From a virus (lineage: Duplodnaviria; Caudoviricetes): a stretch of DNA of 56,139 nt. The notes beneath the pieces are model-generated. The model had not been told where the DNA came from. It made no database searches and saw only the letters and a list, made by a program, of their open reading frames with translations. Location: IMG/VR virus record IMGVR_UViG_3300029986_000023, positions 1-56,139 of that record. The stretch is one strand, 5' to 3'. The translations under genes and the position numbers were made by a program. Below, piece after piece: positions 37,809 through 55,326 of this stretch. Every line of letters begins with the position of its first letter. Positions within the stretch are counted from its first letter, which is position 1.

Positions 37809-38033
37809 TTAAACCGTGATTGCATTAGCGAGGCAGAACGCTTCCATCGTTTCACAATCAGCGAGAGCTTGTGTGTTGAGCGCAACGGCGGCGGTTACGA
37901 TAGGTGTTTGTGCCTGTGTATTTGCTTGGATGGCATCAACTTGTACTTTTGAAAATGTCTGAACAGATCCATCGTCGGCAGTGACCTGAAGCGCGTTGTT
38001 TCCGTCGGCATCCTGAACGAGTGCGAGGGTCAT
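37809..38033 (-). CDS. Small protein after the fibre gene (possible fibre chaperone)
   Basis: Its 5' end also appears at window positions 1..21. Confidence 0.55.
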   Translation of the reverse strand: MTLALVQDADGNNALQVTADDGSVQTFSKVQVDAIQANTQAQTPIVTAAVALNTQALADCETMEAFCLANAITV

Positions 38034-38042
38034 AGAAGGATT

Positions 38043-39380
38043 TTAGGAGTAAACAGGGATATATCCGACGGTCGCTCCACCCGTGATCACCTTGATAAAT
38101 CCTTGTGGGTTAGAGGTCGTTGCTCCAGTCGTCCAGGTCGTCGCTGGGGTCGAGGTGGTCGCGGTGTAGGTGATATTGGCTGTCGTACTTCCGATACCCG
38201 AAAGATCTATACCGCCATCAGCGCGTATTGAACCAGATTTGATCCACAGAGCATATTTGTTCGTCAGCGTTGCATTGCTCCCAGCTATTGGCGCGCCCGT
38301 AATTGTCACTGTACTCGCTGCTGTGAACGTAGAGGCAGCAGCAGCGGCAAACGTCGGGGCATTAATTTGCATGTAATCAGCCTCTGCAACCGTACCTGTC
38401 GCCCACGTTTGAGTAGACGTAACGAACAAGAATTCTGGAGCGTTCACTGTGGTCGTTATACCCGTATTATTTGGCGGAGTCCATGAAGAAAAAGCAACTG
38501 CCCCAGATGAAGTTGCAGACCCGTTCCATGCTTGTGAGCCAGAGGCTGCAACCGCTAAAGCAATTGTAGTGTTGTTCACAATAAACTGAAGTGTCGCATT
38601 ATTCGGTATAACTCGAAAGACCCCTGCACGACCGAAGGTGCCATTATTTTCAGTAAAACCAACAACTAAACCATAACTACCTGCAACACCACTATTAACT
38701 GCAAAATAGGATTCATTGGATGTACCTGAACTCGACGTACTCATTTGTAAGACTTGCGTTCCATCATTAGTGATGATTGCTTCACCCGCTCCATTAGCTC
38801 GATGAACAAAAGCCGTACATAAACCCATACTAAGGTAGCCTGTTGACACGGAGGCGTTTACTTGAAGCTGACCATCTAAACGAGTTACACCGCCTTTAGA
38901 CCATAAACAATACCCATTCGTAATTGTAGCATTCGTACCAGCAATTGGAGCACCTGAAATAGTAAACGTAGCCGCAGAAGTAATTGTCGAAGCTCCCGCG
39001 AACGCCAAAGTGGGCGCATTGAATTGAGCGTAATCGTATTCAGCCAATGCACCTGTCGCGTAGGTTTGCGTTGAGGTTGCAAGTATAAATTGCGGCGCGT
39101 TTGTCGAGAGCGTGATTGCTGTATTGGATGCTGGCGTAAACAAGGCTGTGATGGGCACGCCTGATGAAGATGCTGTTTGCGCTACGGAAAGAGTAGCCGT
39201 TGGCGAAGCTGTGCCAATCCCTAAACGAAAGTTCGTATTATCCCAAAAGAACTTGGCATTGTCTTGTCCCAGATTTCCTGAACCGTCTACGAACAAAACT
39301 GATCCACTGGTTCCACTCCCAACGGCATCCCCAATAGCCATGACTCCGCTATTGCCGCCGCTTCCAAAAAAAGCTGACAT
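38043..39380 (-). CDS. Fibre/spike-like protein, module B allele (445 aa, two repeats)
   Basis: Near-identical to 31..1932 except for the N-terminus and one missing 153-aa unit. Confidence 0.65.
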   Translation of the reverse strand: MSAFFGSGGNSGVMAIGDAVGSGTSGSVLFVDGSGNLGQDNAKFFWDNTNFRLGIGTASPTATLSVAQTASSSGVPITALFTPASNTAITLSTNAPQFILATSTQTYATGALAEYDYAQFNAPTLAFAGASTITSAATFTISGAPIAGTNATITNGYCLWSKGGVTRLDGQLQVNASVSTGYLSMGLCTAFVHRANGAGEAIITNDGTQVLQMSTSSSGTSNESYFAVNSGVAGSYGLVVGFTENNGTFGRAGVFRVIPNNATLQFIVNNTTIALAVAASGSQAWNGSATSSGAVAFSSWTPPNNTGITTTVNAPEFLFVTSTQTWATGTVAEADYMQINAPTFAAAAASTFTAASTVTITGAPIAGSNATLTNKYALWIKSGSIRADGGIDLSGIGSTTANITYTATTSTPATTWTTGATTSNPQGFIKVITGGATVGYIPVYS

Positions 39381-39391
39381 ACGGGGATGTG

Positions 39392-39736
39392 TTAGGAGTT
39401 AAGCGTCAAATCTTGTGCGTACCAAACAGAACCACTTACCTGTTGAGAAGCCGACAAGTTGAGGACGAAATTGGAGCCATCTGCGAGAACAAACGGGCAG
39501 TGATCGCACGAATCATGTTCCCATCCCATATTGGATGTGAAGTCCATCACGTCCATTATTTTTGTCGCTCCGTTGTACAGCGTGATGTTGTTGCTTACAT
39601 TGCAAAACAAGGTAATCCGATGGATACGGATCGTCTTTCCAGCAACGCCCGTGATGATGGTGTTGTTGCCAGACGTAGCAATCGAGATGTCCGCGCGGAT
39701 AATCTCGCCTTTGTGTCGAAGAAGTTCTTGGGACAT
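39392..39736 (-). CDS. Small beta-rich structural protein
   Basis: ADISIATSGNNTIITGVAG..FVLNLSA..QVSG; occupies the slot of 1938..2216. Confidence 0.6.
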   Translation of the reverse strand: MSQELLRHKGEIIRADISIATSGNNTIITGVAGKTIRIHRITLFCNVSNNITLYNGATKIMDVMDFTSNMGWEHDSCDHCPFVLADGSNFVLNLSASQQVSGSVWYAQDLTLNS

Positions 39737-39739
39737 ATT

Positions 39740-39934
39740 TTAGGATAAATCTCTCCGCTTGTTCCGTAAGTCAGTAACGTCGTTGATGAGGCTCTGATGT
39801 TCGTCGCGCAGTTTATTCACGTCCTTGATGAGTTTGGCGATCTCCGATTGAAGTTTCGCTTTCATTTGGGTCAAGGTTGCAAGTTGTTCCTGCTGCGCTT
39901 TTCGTAGGTCGCTCTTTTGAAAGAGCTTCATCAT
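39740..39934 (-). CDS. Short coiled-coil protein
   Basis: Short counterpart of 2200..2922. Confidence 0.6.
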   Translation of the reverse strand: MMKLFQKSDLRKAQQEQLATLTQMKAKLQSEIAKLIKDVNKLRDEHQSLINDVTDLRNKRRDLS

Positions 39935-40395
39935 ACGGCGGCTTCAGTTACGGGAGCGGGAGGAGTGTATTTAGGGCAGCCTTTTTTGTGTCGAACGCCC
40001 TTTGAATCGCATGTGTCGCAGAAAGGAGCTTTGCCCTTAATGCTGGAGCTTGGCTGATCTGGCTGCGGCAAGTGCGGAGGCACTGGCTTGTTCTTGTTCA
40101 AAAGCTCCGTGGTCATTTGGTTCTGGTCAACCTCCTCGGAATCATCTTGCTGGAAGATAATCTTGGCATAGATTTCAGCGCGCACAGGTACGCTATTCGT
40201 GCGAATCTGTTTCTCGGCATCTTTGACGCCAATGTTCATGTGGTTGATCTCGTCGTCGATCAGGTGCTTGGCAAAGTGTTCTGCCAACCAATCCTCCAAA
40301 AAGATTTCCTGGTGAGGTTTGAAGGTGTAACTGACGCTGTTCCACTGCCAGGTAAAGGTACGATCCGTGAAGTTCTTGAACAAGACGCTTTTCAT
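39931..40395 (-). CDS. Conserved head-module hypothetical protein with C-terminal CxxC..H...C
   Basis: Homologue of 2933..3553; FCDTCDSKGVRHKKGC. Confidence 0.7.
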   Translation of the reverse strand: MKSVLFKNFTDRTFTWQWNSVSYTFKPHQEIFLEDWLAEHFAKHLIDDEINHMNIGVKDAEKQIRTNSVPVRAEIYAKIIFQQDDSEEVDQNQMTTELLNKNKPVPPHLPQPDQPSSSIKGKAPFCDTCDSKGVRHKKGCPKYTPPAPVTEAAV

Positions 40396-40436
40396 AAGGG
40401 TTTGGCGGTGGATGAGTTCCGCTATTTGACATCCGA

Positions 40437-40461
40437 CGGGGCTGTTTTAGGCACAGCCCCG
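40437..40461. terminator. Intergenic hairpin after the decoration genes
   Basis: cggggctg-N9-cagccccg; no clear U-tract. Confidence 0.35.
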
Positions 40462-40477
40462 ATAAGCCTTTGAACAA

Positions 40478-41203
40478 TTAGATGTTCAAGAAAACCAAGT
40501 TGTACTTCGTTGTCACGCCCGTTTGAGCGGCCATGCCGATCTGAACGGTCGTCGCAGCCACCGTCATCACAGCACCAGCGGTGTTGGTTGAAGGGGAAAC
40601 GCCGAGGCCGACGGTCGTACCAGCATCGTTCAAGACAGCGATCAAACCTTTCGTCTGGAGGAAGCCGAAATCTGTCGCAGCGACAGGATAAAGAGCCACA
40701 CCAGCAACGGCGTTGGTTGCGGTCGTAGGATAGATGATGGTGTTCGCGTACAAGTTCGGCATCAAGCTGATGCGCGAGGTCGTGTCGAGCGTCGTGATCA
40801 CAGGATCTTCAATCGTGATGACCACCGTACCAGTCGTGGTGGACTGGGCCGTGTTGGTTTTCACGAAGAAGGTTTGACCAGCACCCGTGCCGTCGTTCAC
40901 GAAGCAATAGCCGTTCGCGTATTGACCGAGTGTCGAGGCGGTGCCGCCGAGCGTTGCGCTGATGGATTGACCACCAGTGACAGTGAACGGTGTGACGCAA
41001 ACCATGTTTTGGTGGTTGGCGACGACAGCCGCGCCTTGATAGACCTTACCTGGAACCCAGGCGGTCGCGCCGACTTGGGCGTAAACGAACTCGCGACCGT
41101 CCGTTGAACGGATACGATCACCGAGGTTCGCACCTTGTGTGGTGTTGTCCGAGAAGGCCAGATCAGGCGCGGTGACCATTCCTGGACAGAGTTTTGTAGC
41201 CAT
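40478..41203 (-). CDS. Putative decoration protein 2 (module B)
   Basis: Homologue of 3600..4355; start reassigned to MATKL. Confidence 0.6.
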   Translation of the reverse strand: MATKLCPGMVTAPDLAFSDNTTQGANLGDRIRSTDGREFVYAQVGATAWVPGKVYQGAAVVANHQNMVCVTPFTVTGGQSISATLGGTASTLGQYANGYCFVNDGTGAGQTFFVKTNTAQSTTTGTVVITIEDPVITTLDTTSRISLMPNLYANTIIYPTTATNAVAGVALYPVAATDFGFLQTKGLIAVLNDAGTTVGLGVSPSTNTAGAVMTVAATTVQIGMAAQTGVTTKYNLVFLNI

Positions 41204-41222
41204 AAAATAGGGCTTAGATGAT

Positions 41223-41804
41223 TTATGTAATCGGTGTGGCAAGCGTACCAGAGGCGGCGACCAAACCTGTTACGTTCCACACGGTCGCGGAGATGGCCGT
41301 GAACGTGAGCGTGGTCCCGATCAATCCACCCGTCGTTGAACCGTTCATCGAGAGGGTGTAGTTGCTCGTTCCGTTTGCGAAGAACGCTTTGGTAGTAGCC
41401 GATGCGCTGATAAGCGATTGAACCGCGCCTGAAAGAAAGATGCTTGACTGGACTGCTGTGACGCTGTGCGCGTTGGAGGTAACCGACACGCTCACAATGA
41501 ACGTGAAGATCATCCCCGCAACAGGCGTCGTCGGTAGCGTATACGCGATACCCGTCGCAGCATCCATCAAGAATACCTGACCGCTTTGGGCGGCCGTGAG
41601 CGCAACGGTCGCGCCACCAGAGGCGTTGACTGCGCCTGGAACACCGAGCACGCCGCCAATCGTCGTACCAGCGGGAAGCGTGGTCGCACCCGTAACAGCG
41701 AGCGTGCCCGTAACAGCGAGCGTGCCGCCGAGTACCACGTTCTTGTTCGTGTTGAGCCCCTGGTACTTCACCAGAGGCAAAGCATCTTCGAGTAACATCG
41801 ACAT
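41223..41804 (-). CDS. Putative decoration protein 1 (module B)
   Basis: Homologue of 4376..4963. Confidence 0.6.
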   Translation of the reverse strand: MSMLLEDALPLVKYQGLNTNKNVVLGGTLAVTGTLAVTGATTLPAGTTIGGVLGVPGAVNASGGATVALTAAQSGQVFLMDAATGIAYTLPTTPVAGMIFTFIVSVSVTSNAHSVTAVQSSIFLSGAVQSLISASATTKAFFANGTSNYTLSMNGSTTGGLIGTTLTFTAISATVWNVTGLVAASGTLATPIT

Positions 41805-41844
41805 AATCTTGTAGACCCTCCCCCGTAAACGGGGTCAAAGGTGA

Positions 41845-42468
41845 TTATTTTTTCTTAGAAGACCAGAATCGTTTAGAACGTAGTTCACTCACTCGTTTCG
41901 CCTGCCAGTCTTTCATTTCGGGACGATCCCAATGTTCGTGGCTATGCGTCGACTGAGTAAGCAGTTCAAGATTTTCTGGTCGATTATCGTCTTTGAATCC
42001 ATTGATGTGGTGAACAACCTCATGCTCTTCGAGCAATCTTCCAAGTTTTGTTTCCATCACAAGGCGATGTTCTCGAACATATCCATTCGCTAATGCGTTC
42101 GGATGATCTGGCTGTCTCACATAAACGTATCCATCTTTGCTTAAGACCTTTCCGCCTTTCCAAACATTGTTTCCGTTTCCAGTTCCATGATTGAGAGTCT
42201 GAATGACTTTCAAACGATGTTCCTCGGTTAGTTTCTTCCCAAGATGAGCCTGACGCAGCTTTTCTTTGGTTTCTATCGAATGATGATAACCAAGCCGTGA
42301 AAATGGAATCCCTTTAGTTGAGAACGGACGAGCCTTTACTCCGAGCTTTTTCAATCGGCGCGAGATTGACTTTGCGTCGCAGCCGAATTGCTTACCGAGG
42401 ACTGTCATTGACTTTCCTTCGGCGTATTCCTTGACGAGCTGATCTTCGTTGAGAGATGTGGGTTTCAT
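41845..42468 (-). CDS. HNH homing endonuclease (HTH + NUMOD3 + HNH)
   Basis: HHSIETKEKLRQAHLGKK, WKGG, EHRLVME..LGR.L...EVVHHING.KDDNRPENL. Confidence 0.92.
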   Translation of the reverse strand: MKPTSLNEDQLVKEYAEGKSMTVLGKQFGCDAKSISRRLKKLGVKARPFSTKGIPFSRLGYHHSIETKEKLRQAHLGKKLTEEHRLKVIQTLNHGTGNGNNVWKGGKVLSKDGYVYVRQPDHPNALANGYVREHRLVMETKLGRLLEEHEVVHHINGFKDDNRPENLELLTQSTHSHEHWDRPEMKDWQAKRVSELRSKRFWSSKKK

Positions 42469-42512
42469 AGGCCACTATATTCTCACTTCTGATCTACACC
42501 GTCAAGCAATTT

Positions 42513-43562
42513 TTACACACCTGTCACGCCTGTCAAAACGCCCTGGCGCAACGGGTTGTCGCAGCAGAGTTCGCCACCGAGGTAAATGTGACCGACGACA
42601 GCAGCGGCATCCGAAGGCTTGATCCAGCCGCTCCATGAGAAGCCGAGGCCCAGCACGTTCGAGTAATCGTTGCCTTCGATGTCAACGGACTTGTACTTAA
42701 TGGCTTCCGTCATCGCCATCGGGAGCGCGCGCCACTCAATGAAGTTTTCGTTCAAGAAGTAGAGGTTGCCGACCGTACACTTTTCATCAGCCAAGATCGC
42801 GAAGCCCTTATAGTCCAAGCCAGTGAAGCCTGTACCACCGATGAAGCCCGACTGGGAGTTCAAGCCCTTGTTGTCGTTCTTCATGTTAGCTGGCGTCTTG
42901 TTGATGCGTTCTTGCGGCTGGAGAAGCTGTTCGTACAAAGCCCAGGTCGCGGGATCGGTCACACCGACAGTCGGCTTGATCGTGCCAGAGGTCACGGCGT
43001 TGTAGAGCGTCGCCATTTTCGGCAAGGACAGTGTGCCGCCCGAAGCCGTTTTGGTTGCTTTGATGGTTGGGAAAGTCGTGCGGGACAATCCACCGAACGT
43101 CGCAACGGAAGTACCGTCATCGACGATCGCAGCGAGACCCAAAGGATCTTTGTTTCCGTTGCCCGTGCCATCGAGATAGAACAAGCCACCGACCGAATCG
43201 GCCATGTCTTGTGCGGCACCCTTCACTTCGATCGCAGCGAGGTCGATGATCTGATCATCCGTCGCGTTGGCGGACAATTCATCAAGCGGCAAGGCGACCG
43301 AGATTTGATAGAAAGCAGGATCGAAGGCCAAGAGCTGGCGGTTGTTCGTGGCGGACGTGGAGAACGTATCCATGCCTGCGAACGAGGTTCCCGTGCTGTT
43401 CTTAGAGACTTTCACTGGGTACTTCATTTGGTTACCGCTCCACTTTTTCGCGCGCGATACAGTGCGTGTGAAGAACACGTTGCTTTTAAGCACAGTGTCA
43501 ACCACGAAAGGCATCAGCTTGAAACGTGTGGTAGTGGTAACTCGATTGCCTAATGTAGCCAT
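42513..43562 (-). CDS. Major capsid protein (module B, 349 aa)
   Basis: DGTGNGNKDPLGLAAIVDDG..VATFGGLSR.TFP; follows the scaffold. Confidence 0.85.
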   Translation of the reverse strand: MATLGNRVTTTTRFKLMPFVVDTVLKSNVFFTRTVSRAKKWSGNQMKYPVKVSKNSTGTSFAGMDTFSTSATNNRQLLAFDPAFYQISVALPLDELSANATDDQIIDLAAIEVKGAAQDMADSVGGLFYLDGTGNGNKDPLGLAAIVDDGTSVATFGGLSRTTFPTIKATKTASGGTLSLPKMATLYNAVTSGTIKPTVGVTDPATWALYEQLLQPQERINKTPANMKNDNKGLNSQSGFIGGTGFTGLDYKGFAILADEKCTVGNLYFLNENFIEWRALPMAMTEAIKYKSVDIEGNDYSNVLGLGFSWSGWIKPSDAAAVVGHIYLGGELCCDNPLRQGVLTGVTGV

Positions 43563-43580
43563 AGAGTTGAATGAGTGAGA

Positions 43581-44360
43581 TTAAAACAGGTCGGTTACGT
43601 CTTTTCCTGCGAAGTCCGCAGCGGTCATGTAGTCTTTTTCACCGCTTCCATCACCGCCGCTGTGCGAGGGTGACAGTGAATTGGCGAAGGACTTGCGCGC
43701 ACCCATGCGGGCTGCGTTGGAATTGCCGTTGATTTTTTCCATCAGCGTCAGACCCTTGGCCAGATCGTAGTTTCCGTCTTGATCCATGACTGGATTTTCG
43801 AGCATAAACTTCGCGAGTTCCTGGCGTTGCTCTGGGGTTTTGATACGCCCGCTTTCTTCAAGCGCGGCATACTGATCGTCGATGAAATCATTAGCTTCTT
43901 CAGTTGCTCGCTGCTCCGCAAGTCGTGGAGCCTCTTGTTCGCGAACCAATTCTTCCTTCACGCGCTGACGTTCAGACGCTTGATGGGCTTGGTATGCGTC
44001 CCAAGCGGCCTTGTCGCCTCCAAACCATGCTGGCACCGCCTGATCAGTGCTGGCGGCTGGTGCGGCGGCTTGCGTAGCTTTACGCTCCTGCTCTTCCTTG
44101 AAGGCAAGAAGTTCTTCGTTCTGGCGTAACAGTTCGCGATTGCGGCGCGCAACTTCGCGCAAGCGACCAACTGGTACTTTGTGCGATTCCGCACTCTTAG
44201 GATCAGTGACTTCGCCAGGAGTATTCTCGCCCTCCTGCGATGGCTCGTCTTCCTCTGATTCTTTGTCCGCTAGCGGGGCGGGAGGAGTTGTCATCTCCTC
44301 TGTCTGCTCGACAAACGGATCTTCACCGTCGGTCGGCAGGCTCGCTAAAAAGTCTGACAC
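43581..44360 (-). CDS. Scaffolding protein (module B)
   Basis: Acidic N-terminus, VP..RLREV, coiled coil, upstream of the MCP. Confidence 0.7.
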   Translation of the reverse strand: MSDFLASLPTDGEDPFVEQTEEMTTPPAPLADKESEEDEPSQEGENTPGEVTDPKSAESHKVPVGRLREVARRNRELLRQNEELLAFKEEQERKATQAAAPAASTDQAVPAWFGGDKAAWDAYQAHQASERQRVKEELVREQEAPRLAEQRATEEANDFIDDQYAALEESGRIKTPEQRQELAKFMLENPVMDQDGNYDLAKGLTLMEKINGNSNAARMGARKSFANSLSPSHSGGDGSGEKDYMTAADFAGKDVTDLF

Positions 44361-44388
44361 AAGGTTTTTGGTTTAATTGTGAATGAAA

Positions 44389-44523
44389 TTACTTACCTGG
44401 CATCGGCTGTGGCGCGGCGGCGGCAGCCTTCAACGCGTCGGCTTGATAGCCCAGTTTCGACTTTTTCTTTTTCTTCATCGGCATCTTTCCTTTCGGCATA
44501 GCTGCGGGCGGGGGAAAAGGCAT
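44389..44523 (-). CDS. 44-aa Lys/Pro-rich peptide (not in ORF track)
   Basis: MPFPPPAAMPKGKMPMKKKKKSKLGYQADALK..., fills the portal-scaffold gap. Confidence 0.45.
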   Translation of the reverse strand: MPFPPPAAMPKGKMPMKKKKKSKLGYQADALKAAAAAPQPMPGK

Positions 44524-44528
44524 ACATC

Positions 44529-46415: not shown

Positions 46416-46417
46416 AC

Positions 46418-46462
46418 AAAAAGGCGAGACACCAAAGAATAAATTCTTGAAGGTATCCCGCC
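46418..46462 (-). terminator. Terminator-like hairpin plus U-tract before the portal ATG
   Basis: Minus strand GGCGGGATACC..GGTGTCTCGCC-TTTTT-GT-ATG. Confidence 0.6.
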
Positions 46463-46479
46463 GCTGTATAGGTAGGGAA

Positions 46480-46686
46480 TCAGGAGCAACCGAGTACGGC
46501 TAAGTTGTCTTTACGTTCCAATTTCTTGATACAACCCGCGCTATCATAGTGGATTGTAACACTTCCTTCCGCTATGTCAAAAGCACCCGAAGCAATCAAG
46601 ATGTTTGCCAGGTCAATGTACCGCTGGATCTTGGTGTCAGCCGATACGATCTGGATTGAAAGCAGGGTGGGTGGCATATCAATCAT
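46480..46686 (-). CDS. Small conserved protein between TerL and portal
   Basis: Homologue of 9196..9375. Confidence 0.6.
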   Translation of the reverse strand: MIDMPPTLLSIQIVSADTKIQRYIDLANILIASGAFDIAEGSVTIHYDSAGCIKKLERKDNLAVLGCS

Positions 46687-48355: not shown

Positions 48356-48683
48356 TGTTCACTTGAAGCACTTCAGCCTTAATGGGCGCGTATGTCCCAT
48401 GAACCTTGAAAGTCATGTCAGCAGCCGTCAAACGATCTCGCGCTTTCTCTTCCACATTGGTAAGGATCTCGCTCACAACTCCCTTGGCAGTTTCAGGATC
48501 GAAGCCAAGTATTCTCATTTCCTCTTGGACGCCTTTTGCGGCTATCACACGGCCAGGTGTTGCTTTCGCTGTCGTTTCGTCGTAGCCAGCTGAAACCAGC
48601 ATTGTGTCTAACCTGTCGTAATCCCCATTAGACACTGCCTCGACGAGTTTCTTAGCAAGCCGTTTCTGTCGCAAAGTGGCCAT
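48270..48683 (-). CDS. Probable terminase small subunit (module B; not visibly related to A's)
   Basis: Directly upstream of TerL; T.RQKR....AGY...TA..P, DRL.AADM.FKVHGTYAP. Confidence 0.6.
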   Translation of the reverse strand: MATLRQKRLAKKLVEAVSNGDYDRLDTMLVSAGYDETTAKATPGRVIAAKGVQEEMRILGFDPETAKGVVSEILTNVEEKARDRLTAADMTFKVHGTYAPIKAEVLQVNIDQARLEELALLSHGIKTNVRTKYVKSN

Positions 48684-48689: not shown

Positions 48690-49010
48690 TCATAATAGCT
48701 CGTTACCCTCCTGTTTAGCCAGTTTCGTTGCGAATGGATCGGTGGGAGATCCGTAAACCTTCTCAAACAATCCGTCGGTGTTGCGTTGGAGTAAATCCTG
48801 CCAGTGCCAGTAACGCTGCTCGAATATCTGACGATCAACCTCGGCGGTTCGATAGCTCTGATGTGGTGTCCAGCCCTTACACTTCCAACAAGTAGCGTTG
48901 CCTGCACGAAAGAACCAGTTGTCGGGATTCATGCGTACCCGATCTGGGATGACTGGCAGTCGTCCTTGCCAGGAGTGATCTTTGTGGCAGACGTAGCAGC
49001 GGACGCGCAT
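48690..49010 (-). CDS. Zn-finger hypothetical protein
   Basis: CYVC, CWKC. Confidence 0.6.
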   Translation of the reverse strand: MRVRCYVCHKDHSWQGRLPVIPDRVRMNPDNWFFRAGNATCWKCKGWTPHQSYRTAEVDRQIFEQRYWHWQDLLQRNTDGLFEKVYGSPTDPFATKLAKQEGNELL

Positions 49011-49013
49011 AGG

Positions 49014-49307
49014 CTATTTGGTTTTCCATTCACCGTTCCAGGTTTCGTCGAAGCCGCCAATCTTTTCTGCCGAACCGATCAATTCTCTCAACGAGGCCTG
49101 GATCACTTCTTCGAGGCGTTCCACATCGTCTTGCCGCATCGTCATCGCCCAGGTGTAGATCTTCGGGATCACTGAACCAGGTTCAAACTCTGTCGGCTGC
49201 TCTTTCAACTTGCCAGCGATTTTATACACAACTGCCTCGGAATCTGGTAATGGAATTGGGCCTTCGAGGTAAATGCCTGGAACGTACATTTCGCCAAAGT
49301 GGGCCAT
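49014..49307 (-). CDS. Hypothetical protein
   Basis: Packed ATG ORF. Confidence 0.6.
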   Translation of the reverse strand: MAHFGEMYVPGIYLEGPIPLPDSEAVVYKIAGKLKEQPTEFEPGSVIPKIYTWAMTMRQDDVERLEEVIQASLRELIGSAEKIGGFDETWNGEWKTK

Positions 49308-49312
49308 AGAGA

Positions 49313-49552
49313 TCAGATGATTGATTCAAGCTCCGTATCCACTCCGTTTCGGTCGTTCTCTTCGAGCAGCTCGTCGCGCGCCAGGGTTTCGTCGTCCGTG
49401 TCGAGGATAGCCGCCTTGATGCGTGGTACTGCCTGCTGGACGCGGTAGATGATCTTACGAGAGGCTGGCAGCTTGGTTTCGATGACCAAGATAGCCAAAG
49501 AACATCCAAAGGCTATGAGAAGACCCACAATTAGGCCGAGGATGAACATCAT
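49313..49552 (-). CDS. Membrane-anchored protein
   Basis: Hydrophobic N-terminus. Confidence 0.6.
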   Translation of the reverse strand: MMFILGLIVGLLIAFGCSLAILVIETKLPASRKIIYRVQQAVPRIKAAILDTDDETLARDELLEENDRNGVDTELESII

Positions 49553-49767
49553 GTTGACTCTACTTTATCAGATTTTAGGTGCTTTGTCAATCTTTCCTTG
49601 TGGATTCTTTCTAAGACGCCAAACGGAGGCTCTAGAGATTCTACCCATTGATCTACGAGCTTCTGTTTGTTTTTTTCATCACGGACGAGATCCAGCAAGT
49701 TCATAAATTCTTTTTGGAAATTCAAACGCCTTGCCATCGCGAAGCATTTTTCCTTCAATAGTTTCAA
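49549..49767 (-). CDS. Hypothetical protein
   Basis: Stop overlaps the next start; own start uncertain. Confidence 0.4.
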   Translation of the reverse strand: MKLLKEKCFAMARRLNFQKEFMNLLDLVRDEKNKQKLVDQWVESLEPPFGVLERIHKERLTKHLKSDKVEST

Positions 49768-49936
49768 ACGTAACCGTCAATCCCCCTTTGGGAATCGGTT
49801 TCGATTTATCCCAAGAAACCTCTGAACCGCACATCTTACAGGTAGCGGTGATTGTGCTAATGCGATGCGTCGCAGTTGATTCCGTTTCGTGATGGTACGA
49901 CCAGTTGTTTTCCAAACACTTGTTACAAGCTATCAT
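49679..49936 (-). CDS. Zn-ribbon protein
   Basis: CNKC...CKMC; start reassigned to MIACNK. Confidence 0.55.
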   Translation of the reverse strand: MIACNKCLENNWSYHHETESTATHRISTITATCKMCGSEVSWDKSKPIPKGGLTVTFETIEGKMLRDGKAFEFPKRIYELAGSRP

Positions 49937-50344
49937 ATCGGGCAGTCCTGGAAGCGAAGACAAAAGCCCCCGTAAGTTAAGGGATTTAGTTATTGACGTT
50001 GATAGGGTTGTCTCTCCCATCGTCTCACCAGCCTTCTGTACTCGCCCCGCCATGGGGATTGCCTACGTCGATCAGCGTAAGGAGGAACGCTGATCACACG
50101 CTGTTATCGGTTTAGTCACTACCGCCCTGGGGTAGCTCCATCGCTCGACATCAGTTCCCGTGACTTGGCTTGGCATCCAGGGGTGGCTCACGGGATTCGC
50201 CCGACCACGTTCCCAGCCGTCAGCTCACGGGCATAAAACAAATCCCGCTTGATGTTTTGCGGGATATGTGCGAACATGATCCAGCGAACATGATCCCAAA
50301 GTACCACGGAAAAAGACTTCGGTCAAACCTCCGTGGTATTTTTT

Positions 50345-50386
50345 TGTGGATAACTAATTGACCCGTGTCCCACTCTGTGCTAAAGT
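50345..50386 (+). promoter_or_regulatory. Early promoter with upstream DnaA-box consensus (module B)
   Basis: TGTGGATAA, then TTGACC-17-TAAAGT. Confidence 0.65.
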
Positions 50387-50395
50387 AGAGGAACT

Positions 50396-50569
50396 ATGTC
50401 AATCAATTTCAATGAAGGAAAGATCGAGTGCGATGAGTGCGGAGAAAGCGAGATTTTTACTGGCTGCGTTCACTACAAGGAATTTGTCGAGGAAACGAAA
50501 CAAAATGGATGGACGGCCCAACAAGTCGAGGAAACATGGATAAATAAATGCCCGCATTGTTCACAATAA
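50396..50569 (+). CDS. 57-aa Zn-ribbon protein (not in ORF track)
   Basis: IECDECG...GW.......NKCPHC. Confidence 0.65.
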   Translation: MSINFNEGKIECDECGESEIFTGCVHYKEFVEETKQNGWTAQQVEETWINKCPHCSQ

Positions 50570-50570
50570 T

Positions 50571-50807
50571 ATGCCCCTTTCCCTGAAACAAGAAATCGTC
50601 CACGCGCCTCCCCCTCAACCAAAACCACGCTGGAAGCCGTCCAAAGAATATTGGTTTGTGAATCTGTATTGTGGTGTCGGTTGGTCAGAGGTTGGATTCG
50701 AACATGAAGAGAAGTTATTTGCTGTCGGCAACTGCTTCCCCACCCGTGAGAAGGCCGAGGCTGCCGCGCAAGCCATTAAAGAATTACTAAATAAACTCAA
50801 CCAATAA
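50571..50807 (+). CDS. Hypothetical protein
   Basis: Stand-alone version of the C-terminal domain of 18597..19355. Confidence 0.65.
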   Translation: MPLSLKQEIVHAPPPQPKPRWKPSKEYWFVNLYCGVGWSEVGFEHEEKLFAVGNCFPTREKAEAAAQAIKELLNKLNQ

Positions 50808-50879
50808 ATGTATGACAAAGACGATCACGATTGATGGAGTGGAATACGTCCGCAGGTCTGATGTTAAAGAAGTTTAATT

Positions 50880-51338
50880 GTGAATAGGGATATGCGAGAA
50901 ATACGATTTAGAGCATGGCACAAAACATGGTCGAAAGAAAAATCAGATGACATTGATGGAAAGATAAACGGTATGCAACGTGTAAGAAGCATCCATGAAA
51001 CGCTATCAGGAAATCAGGAAGTACGACTTTGGAACTGGCAGTCATTTTGTCCTATTGAAGACGTTGAACTCATGCAATTTACAGGCCTCCTCGATACGAA
51101 AGGAAAGGAATGCTTCGAGGGAGATCTAGGAAAAGATTGTTTTGGTAAACTTTGGGAGTTTCGTTGGGATGAAACTCAGGCGGGATTTCGAGTCAGACTC
51201 ATTGGTGACGAAAACCTGCCAATAGAGACAATGACGCGTCCAATCGACGGAAGTATCTCCTACAAGAAACCGAACATGGTCAAGCTGGAAGTCATCGGCA
51301 ACATCTGGGAACACAAACACTTGCTCGAAGGCAAGTAA
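50880..51338 (+). CDS. YopX-family protein
   Basis: MREIRFRAW, ELMQFTGLLD.KGKE.FEGD, EVIGNIWEH..LLE. Confidence 0.9.
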   Translation: MNRDMREIRFRAWHKTWSKEKSDDIDGKINGMQRVRSIHETLSGNQEVRLWNWQSFCPIEDVELMQFTGLLDTKGKECFEGDLGKDCFGKLWEFRWDETQAGFRVRLIGDENLPIETMTRPIDGSISYKKPNMVKLEVIGNIWEHKHLLEGK

Positions 51339-51438
51339 AAGAATGCCGCATCGCTTTGCAGGGTGCTGAACAAACGCCGCCAGCTCGACCTACCAAATCA
51401 GAACGAGGTTAAAAAATGAATTGATAAAGAAATAGGGT

Positions 51439-51927
51439 ATGCAAGAACATCAATTTCGCTTCGTACTCGAAGATAAAGAAAAACTTGTAAGGTTGTTGGC
51501 ATTTACGTGTGGATGGCAACAGGCTTGGCTATCAAGACAGCGTGAGTCATTAGAGAATCTTTATGGAAGAAAAGCTGATTTGATGGATGCGGCTGTTGAA
51601 ATGATAGATTATAGGTCTTATCCAGTTGACGATCACAGCTGTCTTGACCATTCGTTTTTACAGGCATTCTTCTCTAGGTTCCCACAAATTGAAATCTTGG
51701 TTAGACCAGACCTAACTTTCGTGGATGCGCCTGTTCCCGCGCTGATGGCCGAAAGCTACAGATACGAAGACGCTTGGAAACATCACGCGCAGGTAATGGT
51801 GTTGATGGAACCGAAAGAGCGCATCAAATATCTTTACTCATACGTCCCTGAATCTTTCAAAAAGTCCTTGAAGGAGCGTCAAGAGAAGGCGCGAGTCAGA
51901 ATCAATGAAATGGCAAAGGATTACTAG
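51439..51927 (+). CDS. Hypothetical protein
   Basis: 162-aa ATG ORF. Confidence 0.65.
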   Translation: MQEHQFRFVLEDKEKLVRLLAFTCGWQQAWLSRQRESLENLYGRKADLMDAAVEMIDYRSYPVDDHSCLDHSFLQAFFSRFPQIEILVRPDLTFVDAPVPALMAESYRYEDAWKHHAQVMVLMEPKERIKYLYSYVPESFKKSLKERQEKARVRINEMAKDY

Positions 51928-52006
51928 CCATCCCGCGCCTCTCATCTAAATCCCCGCCAGCCATCCATCCCTGGTAGCAAAGTGGTGAATGACAAAATAA
52001 TAATTT

Positions 52007-52171
52007 ATGACATTCGCAACAAAATACAAAAATCTAATGAGCTTGTGGGACATGCTCCCCCAAATTATAAAGACAATAGAGCGTCTGGAGACAGAAAATA
52101 AAGCATTAAAATTAGAACGAGATCAAGTACGAAAAGATGTAGCACGCCTGCTCGAACTCGCTAAATCTTAA
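52007..52171 (+). CDS. 54-aa coiled-coil peptide (not in ORF track)
   Basis: Contains TIERLE.EN, as in 52962..53684. Confidence 0.5.
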   Translation: MTFATKYKNLMSLWDMLPQIIKTIERLETENKALKLERDQVRKDVARLLELAKS

Positions 52172-52279
52172 TCCAACTTGTGGGATGTGATGGATGATTG
52201 AAGGATGCTGGCTCTCGTAAGAAGTCAGGTTTTAAACGGATTCATCCATTCAATCATTCCTTTCATCCCGCAACTAACT

Positions 52280-52444
52280 ATGAAACTTCAACTCCATCAA
52301 AAGACCGAGCGCATCATCGGTGCGTTGCGTATTGAAGGCCCCGTGTTCGACAAGATAGAACGCATCGCTAAGAAGCAGAAGACCAGCAACCAAACCGTCA
52401 TTCGTGCCATCTTAAATCAAGTGATTGATTCGGTGGAAGAATAA
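52280..52444 (+). CDS. Ribbon-helix-helix (CopG/Arc-like) protein
   Basis: ALRIEGPVFDKIERIAKKQKTSNQTVIRAIL. Confidence 0.7.
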   Translation: MKLQLHQKTERIIGALRIEGPVFDKIERIAKKQKTSNQTVIRAILNQVIDSVEE

Positions 52445-52445
52445 T

Positions 52446-52613
52446 ATGAACCTTAAACAAGTCCTAGGATATGGCATTTTATCAGTTCCCTTTGTCTTGC
52501 TTGTTCTTGGGTTATTTTTGACAGAGGGATGGAGAAAGGGATTGACCATTCTCCTTGTCGCCTCGACCGCGGTCGTCTGCATATTAGTTGGAACCTGGTT
52601 GCTTAATTCCTAA
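52446..52613 (+). CDS. Two-TM membrane protein
   Basis: Two hydrophobic stretches. Confidence 0.6.
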   Translation: MNLKQVLGYGILSVPFVLLVLGLFLTEGWRKGLTILLVASTAVVCILVGTWLLNS

Positions 52614-52646
52614 CCCCTTTGGCCGCCATCCTAACGAATCCTGAAT

Positions 52647-52901
52647 ATGACCATTGATGAATGTTTCCAAGCCATAGATAAAGGTGAAGGTTTGTTCTTT
52701 TATCCCGACGACATAAAAGAAATCCTCCAACGCTTCGCCCTGGAGTTCGTTACGAGTTGTTTACCAGTAGAAATGAAGATGACGTTAGTGCGTGGAACCG
52801 TTGATCCAGACGATTATTACCGCGATGAATATTACGTCGATGGATTTAACTACTGCCGCACCGCGACGTTGGAGGCGGCGCGTAAGATACTTGGTGTATG
52901 A
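52647..52901 (+). CDS. Hypothetical protein
   Basis: Mosaic homologue of 19618..19869. Confidence 0.65.
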   Translation: MTIDECFQAIDKGEGLFFYPDDIKEILQRFALEFVTSCLPVEMKMTLVRGTVDPDDYYRDEYYVDGFNYCRTATLEAARKILGV

Positions 52902-52961
52902 ACGATTCTTGGTACATTGGTTTCATGGTCGGTTTCATGACAGCTGTTGTGATCCTCGGGA

Positions 52962-53684
52962 TTGCTATTACTATCATTACGTATTGATATGCCCATCCAC
53001 GACACAATCGAAGAGTTGAAGAAACTGGAAGCGAAGGCGACGAAAGGACCTCGTGATGGCGCACGAGCAATCCTGACAAACATTAAAATTGAAGGAGTTG
53101 AGACAACCGAATTGAATCAAGATGAATTGAAGTTTATATCGGCTGTATTGGCGGCCTTCCCCTCCCTCATCGCCGAGTTAGAGCGGTTGGATCGCAGCAA
53201 CAAGGCCAAAGGCGAGTTCGCTGATAAACTCTGTGATGAACAGGAAAAAGTAAAGCGGTTGGAAGAAGAAGTCCAATACCTTCGAGCAGCATTTGTAGAG
53301 GATTCAAAAACGATTATCAACTGCAAAGGAAGCGAATTTCAAAAAACCAAAACGATAGAGCGGTTGGAGAAAGAGAATGAGAAATTGGTGAAATGGCACG
53401 AAGGAAACAAAATCCTGTCCGAAAGTTATAGAGGGCAGAACGAAGAACTCACCCGTCTCCGCGAAACGATAGAGCGGTTGGAGAAAGAGAATGAACAGAA
53501 AACGGATGCGATTTCAGTTTACGCGATTTGGAAGAAAGATTGGGAATCCCGTGAAGCTAAGTGGCAGAAATACTCAGAGAGTGTAGAGAAGATTCTCAAT
53601 GCTTTCTACGGTTCGTGGGTTTTAGGTCAGAAGTGGATAGACCAACGTGACGCCGCCCTCGCTCTTGCGCCTAAAAACGAATAG
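52962..53684 (+). CDS. Ead/Ea22-like coiled-coil protein
   Basis: LEAKATKGP..FI.A...FPSLIAELERL; TIERLEKENE x2. Confidence 0.65.
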   Translation: MLLLSLRIDMPIHDTIEELKKLEAKATKGPRDGARAILTNIKIEGVETTELNQDELKFISAVLAAFPSLIAELERLDRSNKAKGEFADKLCDEQEKVKRLEEEVQYLRAAFVEDSKTIINCKGSEFQKTKTIERLEKENEKLVKWHEGNKILSESYRGQNEELTRLRETIERLEKENEQKTDAISVYAIWKKDWESREAKWQKYSESVEKILNAFYGSWVLGQKWIDQRDAALALAPKNE

Positions 53685-53686
53685 AT

Positions 53687-53998
53687 ATGCTCGACCTCCA
53701 AAAACTGAAAGACCTCGAATCAAAGGCGACGAAAGGGAAATACGAAGTTGATGAAGATACAGTTTCCGTCAATATAAACTCGTTGATGGAAACAGGTGAT
53801 GTCTATTTTATCGCGGACGACTTCTTCACTCGTGAGGATGCCGATTTCATCGTCGCCCTCCGAAATTCATTTGGCCAGCTAGTAAGTGAGATTGAACGGT
53901 TGCAGGCGATGTGTTTCAAACAGGCGGTTGTTCTTGGCGAAATGCAAACCCAACTAAAGCAAGCCGAAGCTCTAAGATGTCCACATACGATTGGATGA
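53687..53998 (+). CDS. Ead/Ea22-like protein
   Basis: LESKATKG..DADFIVALRN..LVSEIERL. Confidence 0.65.
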   Translation: MLDLQKLKDLESKATKGKYEVDEDTVSVNINSLMETGDVYFIADDFFTREDADFIVALRNSFGQLVSEIERLQAMCFKQAVVLGEMQTQLKQAEALRCPHTIG

Positions 53999-54230
53999 TA
54001 TGCCTTGCAACCATGATGAAGTAAACCTAATCCGTTCTGGTGGTGGTGATCCAAATCCATTACCTATTTGCAAGAATTGTGGAGCTATCATTGTTCAATT
54101 AAAAAGACGCACCCCCGAAGAGATACAGGTCTACTGGATGGAACGTGAGGCGAAGTGGCAAGTGTTCGCCTCTCAATTTGAACGCACAATGTTACCTGAA
54201 GACCCACGCATGAAACTAAAACCAAACTGA
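53991..54230 (+). CDS. Hypothetical protein
   Basis: CNH..CKNCG; EREAKWQ. Confidence 0.55.
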   Translation: MDDMPCNHDEVNLIRSGGGDPNPLPICKNCGAIIVQLKRRTPEEIQVYWMEREAKWQVFASQFERTMLPEDPRMKLKPN

Positions 54231-54245
54231 TATATCGGTATCAAT

Positions 54246-54647
54246 ATGTCATCTAAAACGACACATTGCGAGAAACACGCCAAAGACAGATTTATTACAA
54301 CTTGCCTCTGTAATCCGTCTCATTGTGCCTCTTGCGCTCATCCAATGACGGGATTTGAAAAGGACTTTATGACACACTTAAAATCCGTATCACTTGAGAC
54401 AAAAGTCTCTGTGAAGATACCAAGGAACCAAAAGGAAATGGATAAAATCATTGAGAAAATTAAACATGACACATTCTGCAAGCCAGACCATAACGTTGAA
54501 TCCGACGGAATGGTTGCCTTAAAACTTTCGAGGGCAGATGTTGCTGGACTTATTGTAGCCGTTCAATACCATATAGACGAAAACGAGGACGGACGGGTCG
54601 AGCTAAAGCGTATTCGTACCCACTTGGAAAAAGCTTTGAAGTACTAA
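54246..54647 (+). CDS. Hypothetical protein with Cys/His-rich N-terminus
   Basis: T.C.KHAK....TCLC shared with the N-terminus of 20486..20833. Confidence 0.6.
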   Translation: MSSKTTHCEKHAKDRFITTCLCNPSHCASCAHPMTGFEKDFMTHLKSVSLETKVSVKIPRNQKEMDKIIEKIKHDTFCKPDHNVESDGMVALKLSRADVAGLIVAVQYHIDENEDGRVELKRIRTHLEKALKY

Positions 54648-55324: not shown

Positions 55325-55326
55325 GC

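Follow-up and report, generated by a model that had tools for sequence, protein, structure and literature searches.

The 56,139-nucleotide virus record IMGVR_UViG_3300029986_000023 (hereafter the window, analysed at full length) is most likely the path A, S, B, S followed by an assembler through the figure-8 graph of two co-occurring sibling genomes, A+S and B+S, which on sequence grounds appear to be members of an uncultured podophage family. The whole of this explanation, in which B+S is moreover neither a module nor an obligate dependant of A, is given a probability of roughly 55%, and its first part, two genomes and not one molecule, is in itself very probable. We judge the two to be a mosaic phage pair of the ordinary kind and leave a small chance that one sibling is satellite-like. 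A preliminary description of this DNA had pointed to missing replication and recombination genes in B, and this part holds (neither an initiator or primase in B or S nor B+S abundant in samples lacking A was found), but its picture of B as a module of A, or as dependent on A, is not supported.

Two probable sibling genomes in one record

Self-BLASTN resolves the record into the layout A–S–B–S', as follows:

1..21140: arm A, head/packaging module (minus strand) and early region of sibling A+S
21141..38012: shared block S (self-BLASTN, PHROG/Pfam matches)
38013..54642: arm B, head/packaging module and early region of sibling B+S
54643..56139: S', first part of S entered again, up to the record end (99.87% identity to 21141-22636)

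Over its 1497 nt, S' differs from 21141-22636 at two positions, 21152 and 21196, both within 56 nt of the junction, and is identical after 21196. Positions 1-116 equal 38013-38128 exactly and A and B first differ at 117, which indicates that the record begins one k-mer-sized overlap before the branch. The record's first 21 nt hold the start of a 74-aa gene, and the rest of that gene forms the end of S (37809-38033), so real molecules must also have S ahead of A. A+S amounts to 38,012 bp and B+S to 33,502 bp, and the 56-kb record exceeds both. A TerL-family scan of IMG/VR gave at least 500 relatives, of which 80 were kept, the longest of these having 40,077 bp; relatives span 33.4-40.1 kb, a range that holds both siblings, and near-complete ones (96-97% completeness) measure 36.9, 37.9 and 37.3 kb, which leaves B+S 3-4 kb shorter. 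The record shows the marks of an assembly walk: an end at a graph branch, re-entry into a block already traversed, and a length well above that of its relatives.

In the available text of their paper, the CheckV authors regard over-long IMG/VR contigs as assembly artefacts (PMC8116208). As far as that text goes, the window resembles the concatenated contigs noted there in being far longer than its relatives and in an assembler passing through a genome more than once, but those cases repeat the same genome and are flagged by k-mer frequency, whereas here two diverged siblings are joined and 1.5 kb is duplicated. Because only 1.5 kb is repeated, a k-mer-duplication flag would probably miss the 56-kb record.

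Exact A and B proteins also lie on branch-length contigs in other assemblies (the longest of 19,793 bp for A-type and 16,010 bp for B-type), and the 56-kb record is the longest among the contigs with exact A or B proteins. Contigs with exact A proteins number 41-44, against 22-28 for exact B proteins, and S itself exists as two haplotypes, the A-linked variant of the DUF6948 protein being present on 27 contigs and the B-linked one on 16. The NinG-like protein occurs as a 136-aa form (24 contigs) and a 135-aa form (15 contigs), its second haplotype differing by two substitutions and one terminal residue, and a 137-aa protein has one sequence only, start codon aside. Depth in run X3 is 42-52 for A contigs and 31-36 for B-type unitigs (B/A ~0.6-0.85), and with such unequal values A and B are not in strict 1:1 linkage. 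These depths, as well as the co-occurrence figures below, derive from contigs of short-read runs, and short reads cannot phase the arms across 16.9 kb; S downstream of B was traversed for 1.5 kb only, and the full S once. The earlier suggestion of a head module B carried as a passenger by the replicon of A is not supported, in view of the branch-point start, the size of the relatives, the X3 ratio and the larger number of contigs with A-linked S.

A nearly identical block of ~16.9 kb, with tail, adaptor, presumed lysis and distal early genes, would be common to both siblings, and its 526-aa and 299-aa proteins show 48% and 42% identity to proteins of L004, the relative with the closest B-type head. 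The recognised content of S is:

21141..38012, plus: distal early genes (DUF6948, (GNGYG)n ORF, NinG/Rap-like HNH)
21141..38012, minus: tail, adaptor and presumed lysis genes
22854-23264: NinG/Rap-like HNH protein (PHROG/Pfam)
25973-26467: HNH endonuclease (PHROG/Pfam)
35014-35913: SU10_adaptor (6.8e-11)

Head modules and early regions of the two arms

Despite strong divergence, the head/packaging modules of A+S and B+S are homologous, while the two siblings differ in their early regions. Arm A contains:

4995-6032: major head protein (PHROG/Pfam)
7231-9120: portal (PHROG/Pfam)
9365-10984: TerL (PHROG/Pfam)
12132-13718: GroEL (PHROG/Pfam)
13720-14019: GroES (PHROG/Pfam)
14053-14481: TerS (GP3_package; PHROG/Pfam)
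15230-15982, minus: DnaD/O-like helicase loader/initiator (phrog_2514, E 6.5e-12)
15566-15733: direct repeats inside the initiator gene, candidate origin (repeat search)
17116-17835, plus: RecT-family annealing protein (Pfam RecT 2.9e-26, phrog_2449 5.1e-41)
17807-18595, plus: exonuclease (phrog_298 7.3e-26)

The initiator, the exonuclease and, as direct repeats, the iterons previously ascribed to A are all present, but the annealing protein that had been called Bet belongs to the RecT family. Arm B contains:

within 38043..48683, minus: 445-aa variable protein and head-completion ORFs
41845-42468, minus: HNH endonuclease
42513-43562, minus: major head protein
43581-44360, minus: scaffold-position ORF ("scaffold" from position only)
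44529-46415, minus: portal
46679-48355, minus: TerL (phrog_675)
48270-48683, minus: TerS-like (12 homologues in relatives, directly upstream of TerL there)
48690..50053, minus: four small ORFs of 106 aa (Cys-rich), 97 aa, 79 aa (hydrophobic) and 124 aa (Cys-rich)
50054..50395: non-coding region, 342 nt, no ORF
50270-50296: 14-nt direct repeat, two copies (repeat search)
50298-50347: hairpin and T-run (read from sequence)
50345-50353, minus: perfect DnaA-box 9-mer (window count not above chance)
50358-50386: sigma-70-like promoter site before the first plus-strand ORF (consensus match only)
50396..54647, plus: early operon, with a 57-aa Zn-ribbon-like ORF, 78 aa, small ORFs, 103 aa, 79 aa and 133 aa
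50880-51338, plus: YopX (PF09643, 4.1e-12)
51439-51927, plus: 162-aa ORF (8 unnamed homologues)
52962-53684, plus: 240-aa coiled-coil ORF

That B has its own head was rightly stated, since TerL, portal and major head protein are recognised (phrog_675 1.5e-60, phrog_156 5.4e-9, phrog_9953 8.8e-49). The two arms are syntenic, with gene-for-gene homologues at 38% (TerL), 31.5% (portal) and 27.6% (major head protein) identity, two further pairs at 38% and 52%, and a 445/633-aa protein at 91%. B shares with the TerL phrog_675 podophage family (L004, G002, G003, G006) homologous TerL, portal and major head protein in the family order TerS-TerL-portal-scaffold-major head protein-adaptor, together with the divergent early/late promoter layout, and is assigned to this family; GroES/GroEL are found in A and several members. 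B and L004 are 47% identical in TerL, 47% in portal and 59% in major head protein. Among 50,697 phage records there is no cultured relative, the best TerL identity being ~23%.

The non-coding DNA of B, put at ~400 bp in the preliminary description, is indeed free of ORFs but measures 342 nt, and is a candidate control region and/or origin. Its DnaA box and repeats are single occurrences, its RNA fold z-score is -2.7, and Rfam gave no match to it. The early promoter proposed there corresponds to the sigma-70-like site, a consensus match in a region where nine such sites are observed against 10.8 expected. Early ORFs of B have almost no homologues in the TerL phrog_675 family, and the 240-aa and 133-aa ORFs have near-identical relatives only.

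The four small minus-strand ORFs occupy the slot of the initiator in A and L004. They matched no family in PHROGs, Pfam or NCBIfam, and their hhalign probability against the initiator profile is at most 0.3%; for the 124-aa ORF no homologue was found beyond near-identical copies, and its AlphaFold model is unusable (pLDDT 41). In all, 86 window ORFs were scanned against PHROGs (E ≤ 1e-3) and Pfam (E ≤ 0.01), and 32 against NCBIfam (E ≤ 0.1), and no initiator, helicase, primase, polymerase, annealing protein, recombination exonuclease or integrase was matched by any B or S ORF; the family-specific initiator profile, PDB sequence searches and one structure search likewise gave no such match. The DNA-metabolism matches in B and S are the three HNH proteins listed above (41845-42468, 25973-26467 and the NinG/Rap-like 22854-23264). 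In the six-frame window, a family-initiator profile of nine sequences matched solely A's initiator frame (hmmsearch, E 1.4e-83), with a best E of 3.4 in B or S, and hhalign of 25 ORFs against it gave at most 0.9% probability, the control giving 100%. The reported lack of recognisable replication or recombination genes in B and S was thus borne out at every search sensitivity reached, and the cryptic initiator that had been suspected there did not emerge from profile, PDB sequence or structure searches. The 162-aa ORF, named beforehand as a candidate for this role, is rejected: its homologue on G001, a contig unrelated to the record, adjoins a separate O-like initiator, and its model (pLDDT 77.9) found no fold match in a structure search.

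Replication of the smaller sibling

One check proposed earlier was whether B-type MCP/TerL relatives carry replication genes. L004 has a DnaD/O-like initiator, Erf and a RecE-like exonuclease at syntenic sites, and together with 10 other relatives carries an initiator, helicase or primase, unlike B; eight of 19 distinct relatives, two of them 96-97% complete genomes, have no recognisable one in the 5.5-10 kb upstream of TerL. G002 and G003 resemble B in this respect, with none in any non-structural ORF of at least 60 aa (Pfam, PHROGs, E ≤ 1e-3). By our own tally, nine of the 19 have at least one of an annealing protein and a recombination exonuclease. Since two of the genomes without a recognisable initiator are 96-97% complete, its absence by annotation is common in the family, and the eight of 19 favour the ordinary reading of unrecognised or host-supplied replication functions.

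Given two genomes, B+S is probably autonomous. It would be a complete virion-encoding genome, with late genes running leftward from ~50050 and early genes rightward from the promoter-like site at 50358, that has lost, or never had, the DnaD/O-like initiator and the annealing-protein/exonuclease pair common in the family. We infer that its replication would rely on the host machinery and begin at an origin within 50054-50395, aided by at least one orphan early protein. The former proposal that B depends on A is not supported, with A's origin repeats absent from B and eight of 19 relatives equally devoid of a recognisable initiator, helicase or primase. Dependence on A is the less likely reading, and a missing initiator alone is no proof of a need for a helper.

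It is unlikely that B+S is a virion-complete, replication-defective sibling, akin to a satellite virus or a defective interfering genome, that multiplies only with A+S or another sibling. Such a genome would use the initiator/loader of the helper, or its RecT/exonuclease recombination across the shared 16.9-kb block, and common tail genes would keep both in one host. None of the searches revealed an initiator, helicase, primase, annealing protein or exonuclease in B or S, whereas A and L004 carry initiator, annealing protein and exonuclease at syntenic sites; B+S is 3-4 kb smaller than near-complete relatives, and exact A proteins lie on more contigs than exact B proteins (41-44 against 22-28). 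There is also precedent in MiniFlayer and MulchRoom, which, in the accessible part of the report, have capsid genes and no replication genes (PMC10690885). A was present, at similar depth, in all four runs examined among the 24 listed that hold B, with B/A ~0.6-1.1 over an 8-fold range of absolute depth; B+S abundant without A, which would speak for independence, was not seen, and co-occurrence at similar depth would fit dependence or physical linkage. These runs, however, are peat metagenomes of 2019-2020, probably from one sampling campaign, two of them flagged as possible sources, and they were assessed on contigs and not reads. Furthermore, neither B nor S contains the origin repeats of A, so that A's initiator has no evident site there, two 96-97% complete relatives are also devoid of a recognisable initiator, and nothing in B resembles a helper-exploiting function.

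A more specific version, decidedly unlikely, makes B+S a full-size, virion-complete "sibling satellite" that shed its initiator and recombination genes and now persists only through co-infection with A+S. The recently shared tail block of 16.9 kb would direct both to the same cells, where replication or RecT/exonuclease functions of the sibling would copy B+S. Such a genome would, if real, bridge defective phages and satellite viruses. The evidence does not raise an initiator-less dependent sibling above the ordinary explanation.

Highly improbable is a true B genome other than the B+S shown here, in which the B-linked S differs beyond 22636 and carries extra, possibly replication, genes skipped by the assembler. 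The record does stop 1.5 kb into S', the full S was traversed once, and the two S haplotypes have contig counts matching A-linked and B-linked variants. Yet the NinG-like haplotypes are nearly the same, so that the two S copies look collinear where visible, the 137-aa protein has a single sequence, and replication genes of relatives lie between the divergent promoter and TerS, not in the tail block.

The slimmest chance is left to a real A-S-B-S molecule, a heterodimeric cointegrate or concatemer that arose when S recombined and that has B on A's replicon: all four junction types are present or implied, three of the four runs give A and B similar depths, the RecT and exonuclease of A could make such molecules, and the same protein cluster holds another long contig of 51,580 bp, but the closed molecule would have 71.5 kb, about twice every near-complete relative, and two full head and packaging sets, its perfect 16.9-kb direct repeat should resolve fast with a RecT system, and the exact branch-point start, the X3 ratio, the differing contig numbers of the two S variants and the artefacts reported in the CheckV text (PMC8116208) all stand against it.

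Known systems and wider meaning

The idea of a virion-encoding element lacking replication genes is not new in kind, and satellite phages that bring their own capsid genes but none for replication have already been described, as far as the available text goes (PMC10690885). According to that text, the Streptomyces satellites MiniFlayer and MulchRoom encode a terminase, portal, capsid, scaffold and adaptor of their own and no recognisable replication genes, co-occur with a replication-competent phage as B+S does with A, and, in the case of MiniFlayer, lack an integrase as B+S does. They have 20-26 genes, against ~55 ORFs (own ORF call), a complete tail block and head genes homologous to A in B+S, and their helper dependence was shown by experiment, whereas that of B+S is hypothetical. 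With regard to satellites in general, B+S encodes encapsidation genes and, by annotation only, has no key replication genes, but it is neither much smaller than its would-be helper (33.5 against 38.0 kb) nor unrelated to it, the head being homologous and the tail block shared.

Capsid-forming PICIs are integrating elements without tails that carry replication genes. Like them (10.1101/2025.02.11.637232), B+S is mobile and brings capsid and packaging genes of its own. It differs in that tails are encoded, S holding adaptor and tail proteins, and in that no integrase or replication gene was matched (PHROGs, Pfam), and it is not placed among them.

The window is rated 100% complete and very likely holds two genomes in one string, so gene-content or genome-size statistics drawn from it would come out wrong. 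In this abundant uncultured family, a sizeable share of the members is without a recognisable replication protein, and an initiator-less sibling in need of its relative, if true, would illustrate a route from ordinary phages to satellite viruses. In lambdoid and P22-like phages, whole functional modules are swapped at gene boundaries between co-infecting relatives. As in that mosaicism, short high-identity patches flank the exchanged A/B blocks (self-BLASTN), but the A/B siblings have no cultured relative. In this pair, an entire tail, lysis and distal-early block was exchanged very recently between phages with only 28-38% identity in their head proteins.

Probably two genomes in one record

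Self-comparison resolves the record, which is classed as 'linear' with a CheckV completeness of 100, into four parts: arm A (1-21140), shared block S (21141-38012), arm B (38013-54642) and a second pass into S, here S' (54643-56139). Each arm holds a head and packaging module with an early region. In the preliminary description B was a module of one genome; the contig ends, the size of the relatives, the occurrence of branch-length contigs, the haplotypes of S and the hybrid forms of one protein indicate that this arrangement is most likely an assembly artefact, and that the record probably contains two genomes, A+S and B+S, instead of one.

S' shows only two differences from 21141-22636, at 21152 and 21196, both at most 56 nt from the junction. 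The left ends of A and B coincide exactly (1-116 = 38013-38128), with the first mismatch at 117, and further inside 716-1713 and 38269-39266 share 96% identity in the self-comparison. The start of the contig lies 116 nt, or one overlap-length, ahead of the point where A and B first differ. The initial seven codons of a 74-aa gene whose body lies at the end of S (37809-38033) make up the first 21 nt of the contig, which implies that S also precedes A in real molecules. After B, the contig goes into S again and ends.

An alignment-based scan of IMG/VR gave at least 500 relatives of the terminase large subunit (TerL), the longest of the 80 kept being 40,077 bp, and the three near-complete relatives (96-97% complete) measure 36.9, 37.9 and 37.3 kb. 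A+S amounts to 38,012 bp and B+S to 33,502 bp; a closed A-S-B-S molecule would reach 71.5 kb with two complete head and packaging sets. Exact A or B proteins were also found on numerous further contigs; the longest of these (19,793 bp for A-type and 16,010 bp for B-type) approximate a branch in length, and no contig in any protein cluster checked is longer than this record. S itself occurs as two slightly different haplotypes with contig counts that follow the arms: the DUF6948 variant adjoining A in 27 contigs and that adjoining B in 16, the 136-aa form of the NinG-like protein in 24 and its 135-aa form, which has two substitutions, in 15. Over-long IMG/VR contigs are described as assembly artefacts by the CheckV authors (PMC8116208). 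A k-mer check would probably miss this record, because its duplication is only 1.5 kb.

Two runs seemed to connect A 6101 with B 52116 on the reverse strand, but this proved to be a shared 18-mer and no junction. An exact 40-mer of the B TerL gave 0 matches in IMG/VR, and single-protein scans with this TerL in IMG/VR and JGI metagenomes, from which near-identical records were excluded, yielded only two relatives at 47%; the scan with P0066, a 480-aa variant protein, had the same result, with no second B+S assembly among the non-near-identical records.

Gene content and the missing replication genes of B

The 86 ORFs of the window were scanned against PHROGs (E≤1e-3) and Pfam (E≤0.01). No tRNA and 0 Rfam matches were found in the window.

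Features of A and S (coordinates, strand, description)
A: 31-1932, minus, 633-aa variable protein, with head-completion ORFs
A: 4995-6032, minus, major head protein
A: 7231-9120, minus, portal
A: 9365-10984, minus, TerL
A: 12132-14019, minus, GroEL/GroES, between TerL and TerS
A: 14053-14481, minus, TerS, P22-gp3-type
A: 14845-15225, minus, 126-aa ORF just downstream of the initiator
A: 15230-15982, minus, DnaD-like initiator (phrog_2514, 6.5e-12)
A: minus strand, 84-aa ORF listed after the initiator
A: 17116-17835, plus, RecT
A: 17807-18595, plus, exonuclease, with small plus-strand ORFs besides
S: plus strand, distal early genes: DUF6948, 91-aa (GNGYG)n ORF, NinG/Rap-like HNH protein
S: 23337-24357, minus, three small ORFs at the late-operon end, putative lysis genes by position only
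S: 35014-35913, minus, SU10-type adaptor, with large tail proteins also on the minus strand

The head module of B matches that of A gene for gene, with identities of 38% (TerL), 31.5% (portal), 27.6% (major head protein) and 38% and 52% (two further proteins); the 445-aa protein of B and the 633-aa protein of A are 91% identical. GroEL/GroES is present in A and absent from B; one or both occur in relatives L024, L057, L058, L065, L068, L074, L078 and G002. No endolysin or holin family was matched in the window by PHROGs or Pfam; relative G002, by contrast, encodes both an amidase and a holin. The 91-aa ORF of the shared early region (21546-21821, plus strand, repeated at 55049-55324) consists almost entirely of GNGYG-type repeats, encoded by 13.6 copies of an 18-nt unit. 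A homologue of the 126-aa ORF lies directly downstream of an O-like initiator in the unrelated phage contig G001 (26% identity, E 2e-9; locus L007, 878-1312), and by this synteny the ORF and the initiator may form a conserved initiator-partner pair.

The earlier observation that B has no recognisable replication or recombination genes is borne out by PHROGs, Pfam, NCBIfam, PADLOC and an initiator profile. The position of A's initiator is occupied in B by four small ORFs (124, 79, 97 and 106 aa, from 50053 to 48690). In place of RecT and exonuclease, B has 342 nt devoid of ORFs (50054-50395), after which come a Cys-rich ORF of 57 aa and a 78-aa ORF, the latter homologous to the C-terminus of a 252-aa protein of A. 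No ORF of B or S matched an initiator, helicase, primase, polymerase, annealing protein, recombination exonuclease or integrase in PHROGs and Pfam, in NCBIfam (32 ORFs, E≤0.1) or in PADLOC (30 ORFs), which returned only HNH-type matches on the NinG-like protein. A profile of nine initiators from the same phage family, searched against the six-frame translation of the window, recovered solely the gene of A (E 1.4e-83), the best value in B or S frames being E 3.4; with hhalign, none of 25 B and S ORFs exceeded 0.9% probability against the initiator alignment, and the positive control reached 100%. PDB sequence searches with nine B and S ORFs and an alignment of the 162-aa ORF found nothing below E 0.02 other than YopX, which led to uncharacterised proteins. 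For the 124-, 240- and 133-aa ORFs, nothing but near-identical relatives turned up among 5.8 billion clusters or 1.84 billion representatives, the AlphaFold model of the 124-aa ORF was unusable (pLDDT 41), and the ESM Atlas gave nothing usable for the 162- and 133-aa ORFs. A possible likeness of the 240- and 103-aa ORFs to Ead/Ea22 proteins received no support from Pfam and was dropped.

The 162-aa ORF at 51439-51927, once proposed as a cryptic initiator, is probably not one. It has 8 homologues, none of them named; in the 26-kb contig G001, one of these has a distinct O-like initiator 2.3 kb upstream of it, which argues against an initiator function. Its AlphaFold model, made with the 8-sequence alignment, has a mean pLDDT of 77.9 and found no fold match (Foldseek against PDB, best E 2.5; VIA wide, best Z 4.1; BFVD, best E 1.0); such misses are no evidence of a new fold.

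Direct repeats lie within the initiator gene of A (15566-15733), an arrangement that we take to resemble that of lambda O/ori. The four repeat motifs of A are absent from B and S at the mismatch levels tried. The ORF-free stretch of B has elements of its own, and its RNA fold is somewhat better than that of shuffles (z -2.7).

Elements in the non-coding region of B (coordinates, description)
50270-50296, 14-nt direct repeat, two copies
50298-50347, hairpin and T-run
50345-50353, minus strand, perfect DnaA-box 9-mer
50358-50386, promoter-like site

From these sequence elements we infer that 50054-50395 is a candidate control region and origin of B. The early region of A likewise contains one perfect DnaA box (16574-16582); one box per early region is a lead only, and DnaA boxes in the window are at chance levels (7 observed against 5.7 expected, or 15 against 11.5 with one mismatch) with no cluster. 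A 59-nt intergenic element shared by A (20388-20446) and B (51341-51399) at 95% identity occupies different relative operon positions; it has no stable RNA fold and could be a protein-binding or promoter element.

A and B in peat metagenomes

Positions 40001-50000 of B were present at 95-100% of sampled words in 24 peat-metagenome runs, 20 of which carry a flag as possible sources, and Logan contigs of four of them (X3, X8, X21 and X24) were compared with A 1-20000. On whether B ever occurs without A, the presence of A in 4/4 runs examined is weak evidence either way, because the runs are probably from one campaign and the comparison is at contig level. At 1159-1284 two unitigs were found together, one with the sequence of A and the other with exactly the five differences of B.

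Depths in the four runs (X3; X8; X21; X24)
A/B unitigs at 1159-1284: 42.2/35.7; 6.1/5.9; 8.7/7.1; 10.0/6.4
B-derived contigs on A patches at 19622-19837: 30.9; 9.6; 6.2; 7.0
Long A contigs: ~52; 8-10; 4-7; 6-9

Overall, A and B are similar in depth, with a B/A ratio of about 0.6-1.1, but in X3 the ratio is clearly below 1, which speaks against one molecule; together with the contig ends and sizes, this makes the notion of B as a passenger on the replicon of A unlikely. The depths would fit either siblings that share a host or dependence. A 52-nt unitig at the start of RecT (17073-17124) exceeds the depth of A in 4/4 runs (90 against 52 in X3), and in three of them (X8, X21 and X24) it has loose ends on both sides absent from the window; the same samples thus contain one or more additional siblings, flanked differently.

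The 445/633-aa protein (38043-39380 and 31-1932, both minus strand) belongs to a cluster whose members measure 414, 432, 445, 480, 585 or 633 aa and include reciprocal hybrids: the 480-aa form joins an A-type N-terminus to the short B-type body, the 585-aa form has the opposite combination, and their contigs reach 34,391 and 51,580 bp. These hybrids reflect either active recombination or alternative assembler paths through the 96% region. The body of the protein is repetitive and rich in Thr, Ser, Ala and Gly, a composition suggesting that it may be a variable fibre or decoration protein. Two homing-type HNH genes, one after the major head protein of B (41845-42468, minus) and one with HNH_3 and AP2 domains on the opposite strand within the tail block (25973-26467, plus), are possible drivers of mosaicism. 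GC3 is 0.65 in the B head (39392-48683), 0.43 in the A head, 0.48 in the S tail and 0.46 in the B early genes, whose codon usage matches that of the A and S early genes (r 0.85-0.90), and hence the B head module looks like the most recent import; as a guide to the native arm of S, the head and tail values were undecisive. L106 and L107, two loci of the same bin considered as mosaic siblings, are 99.6% identical and thus strain variants.

Replication genes among the relatives

No cultured relative was found, since TerL identity reaches at best ~23% in 50,697 phage records, and the MAG bins of the relatives span so many phyla that no host can be named. We compared 19 distinct relatives (20 initial loci, minus L040, identical to L039, and L071 and L069, identical to L068, plus L004 and G006). 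In each, ORFs of 95 aa or longer within a stretch of 5.5-10 kb upstream of TerL were searched against PHROGs, with cut-offs of E≤1e-3, ≤1e-6 and ≤1e-8 across the scans. The preliminary description had asked whether B-type relatives carry replication genes, and the answer is divided: an initiator, helicase or primase was found in 11/19 (L004, the closest relative with a B-type head, L014, L019, L023, L024, L039/40, L056, L058, L068, L077 and G006), and none of the three in the other 8 (L016 = G002, L029, L057 = G003, L063, L065, L074, L079 and L078, the last with 5.5 kb covered). When the non-structural ORFs of G002 and G003 (96-97% complete) were all rescanned down to 60 aa with Pfam and PHROGs (E≤1e-3), the sole matches were to exonucleases of YqaJ/RecE-like and DnaQ-like (phrog_403) type, a Rad52-like protein, NinG, methylases, GroES/GroEL and phrog_1347, an uncharacterised family that also matches parts of the L004 and L058 initiators and is represented here by a fragment-like 103-aa match. 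Unlike these two genomes, B additionally lacks an annealing protein or recombination exonuclease, and homologues of its early ORFs are almost lacking in the relatives.

Capsid-forming PICIs (cf-PICIs) carry an integrase and are not known to encode tails; B+S, with tails and no integrase, is not one of them. A described parallel for a dependent element is that of MiniFlayer and MulchRoom, satellite phages of Streptomyces that have terminase, portal, capsid, scaffold and adaptor genes and no replication genes (PMC10690885). In contrast to them, B+S is a full-size sibling of its putative helper, with its own tails and an only putative dependence. The proposal that B is a dependent element keeps in its favour the lack of recognisable replication genes; against it stand the eight relatives in the same situation and the absence from B of the repeats of A, and the ordinary alternative, a phage whose replication functions escape annotation or come from the host, fits the family, so we consider dependence unlikely. 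With 8/19 relatives giving no match, genomes of this family often lack an annotated initiator, helicase or primase, and the replication module is the family's most variable part.
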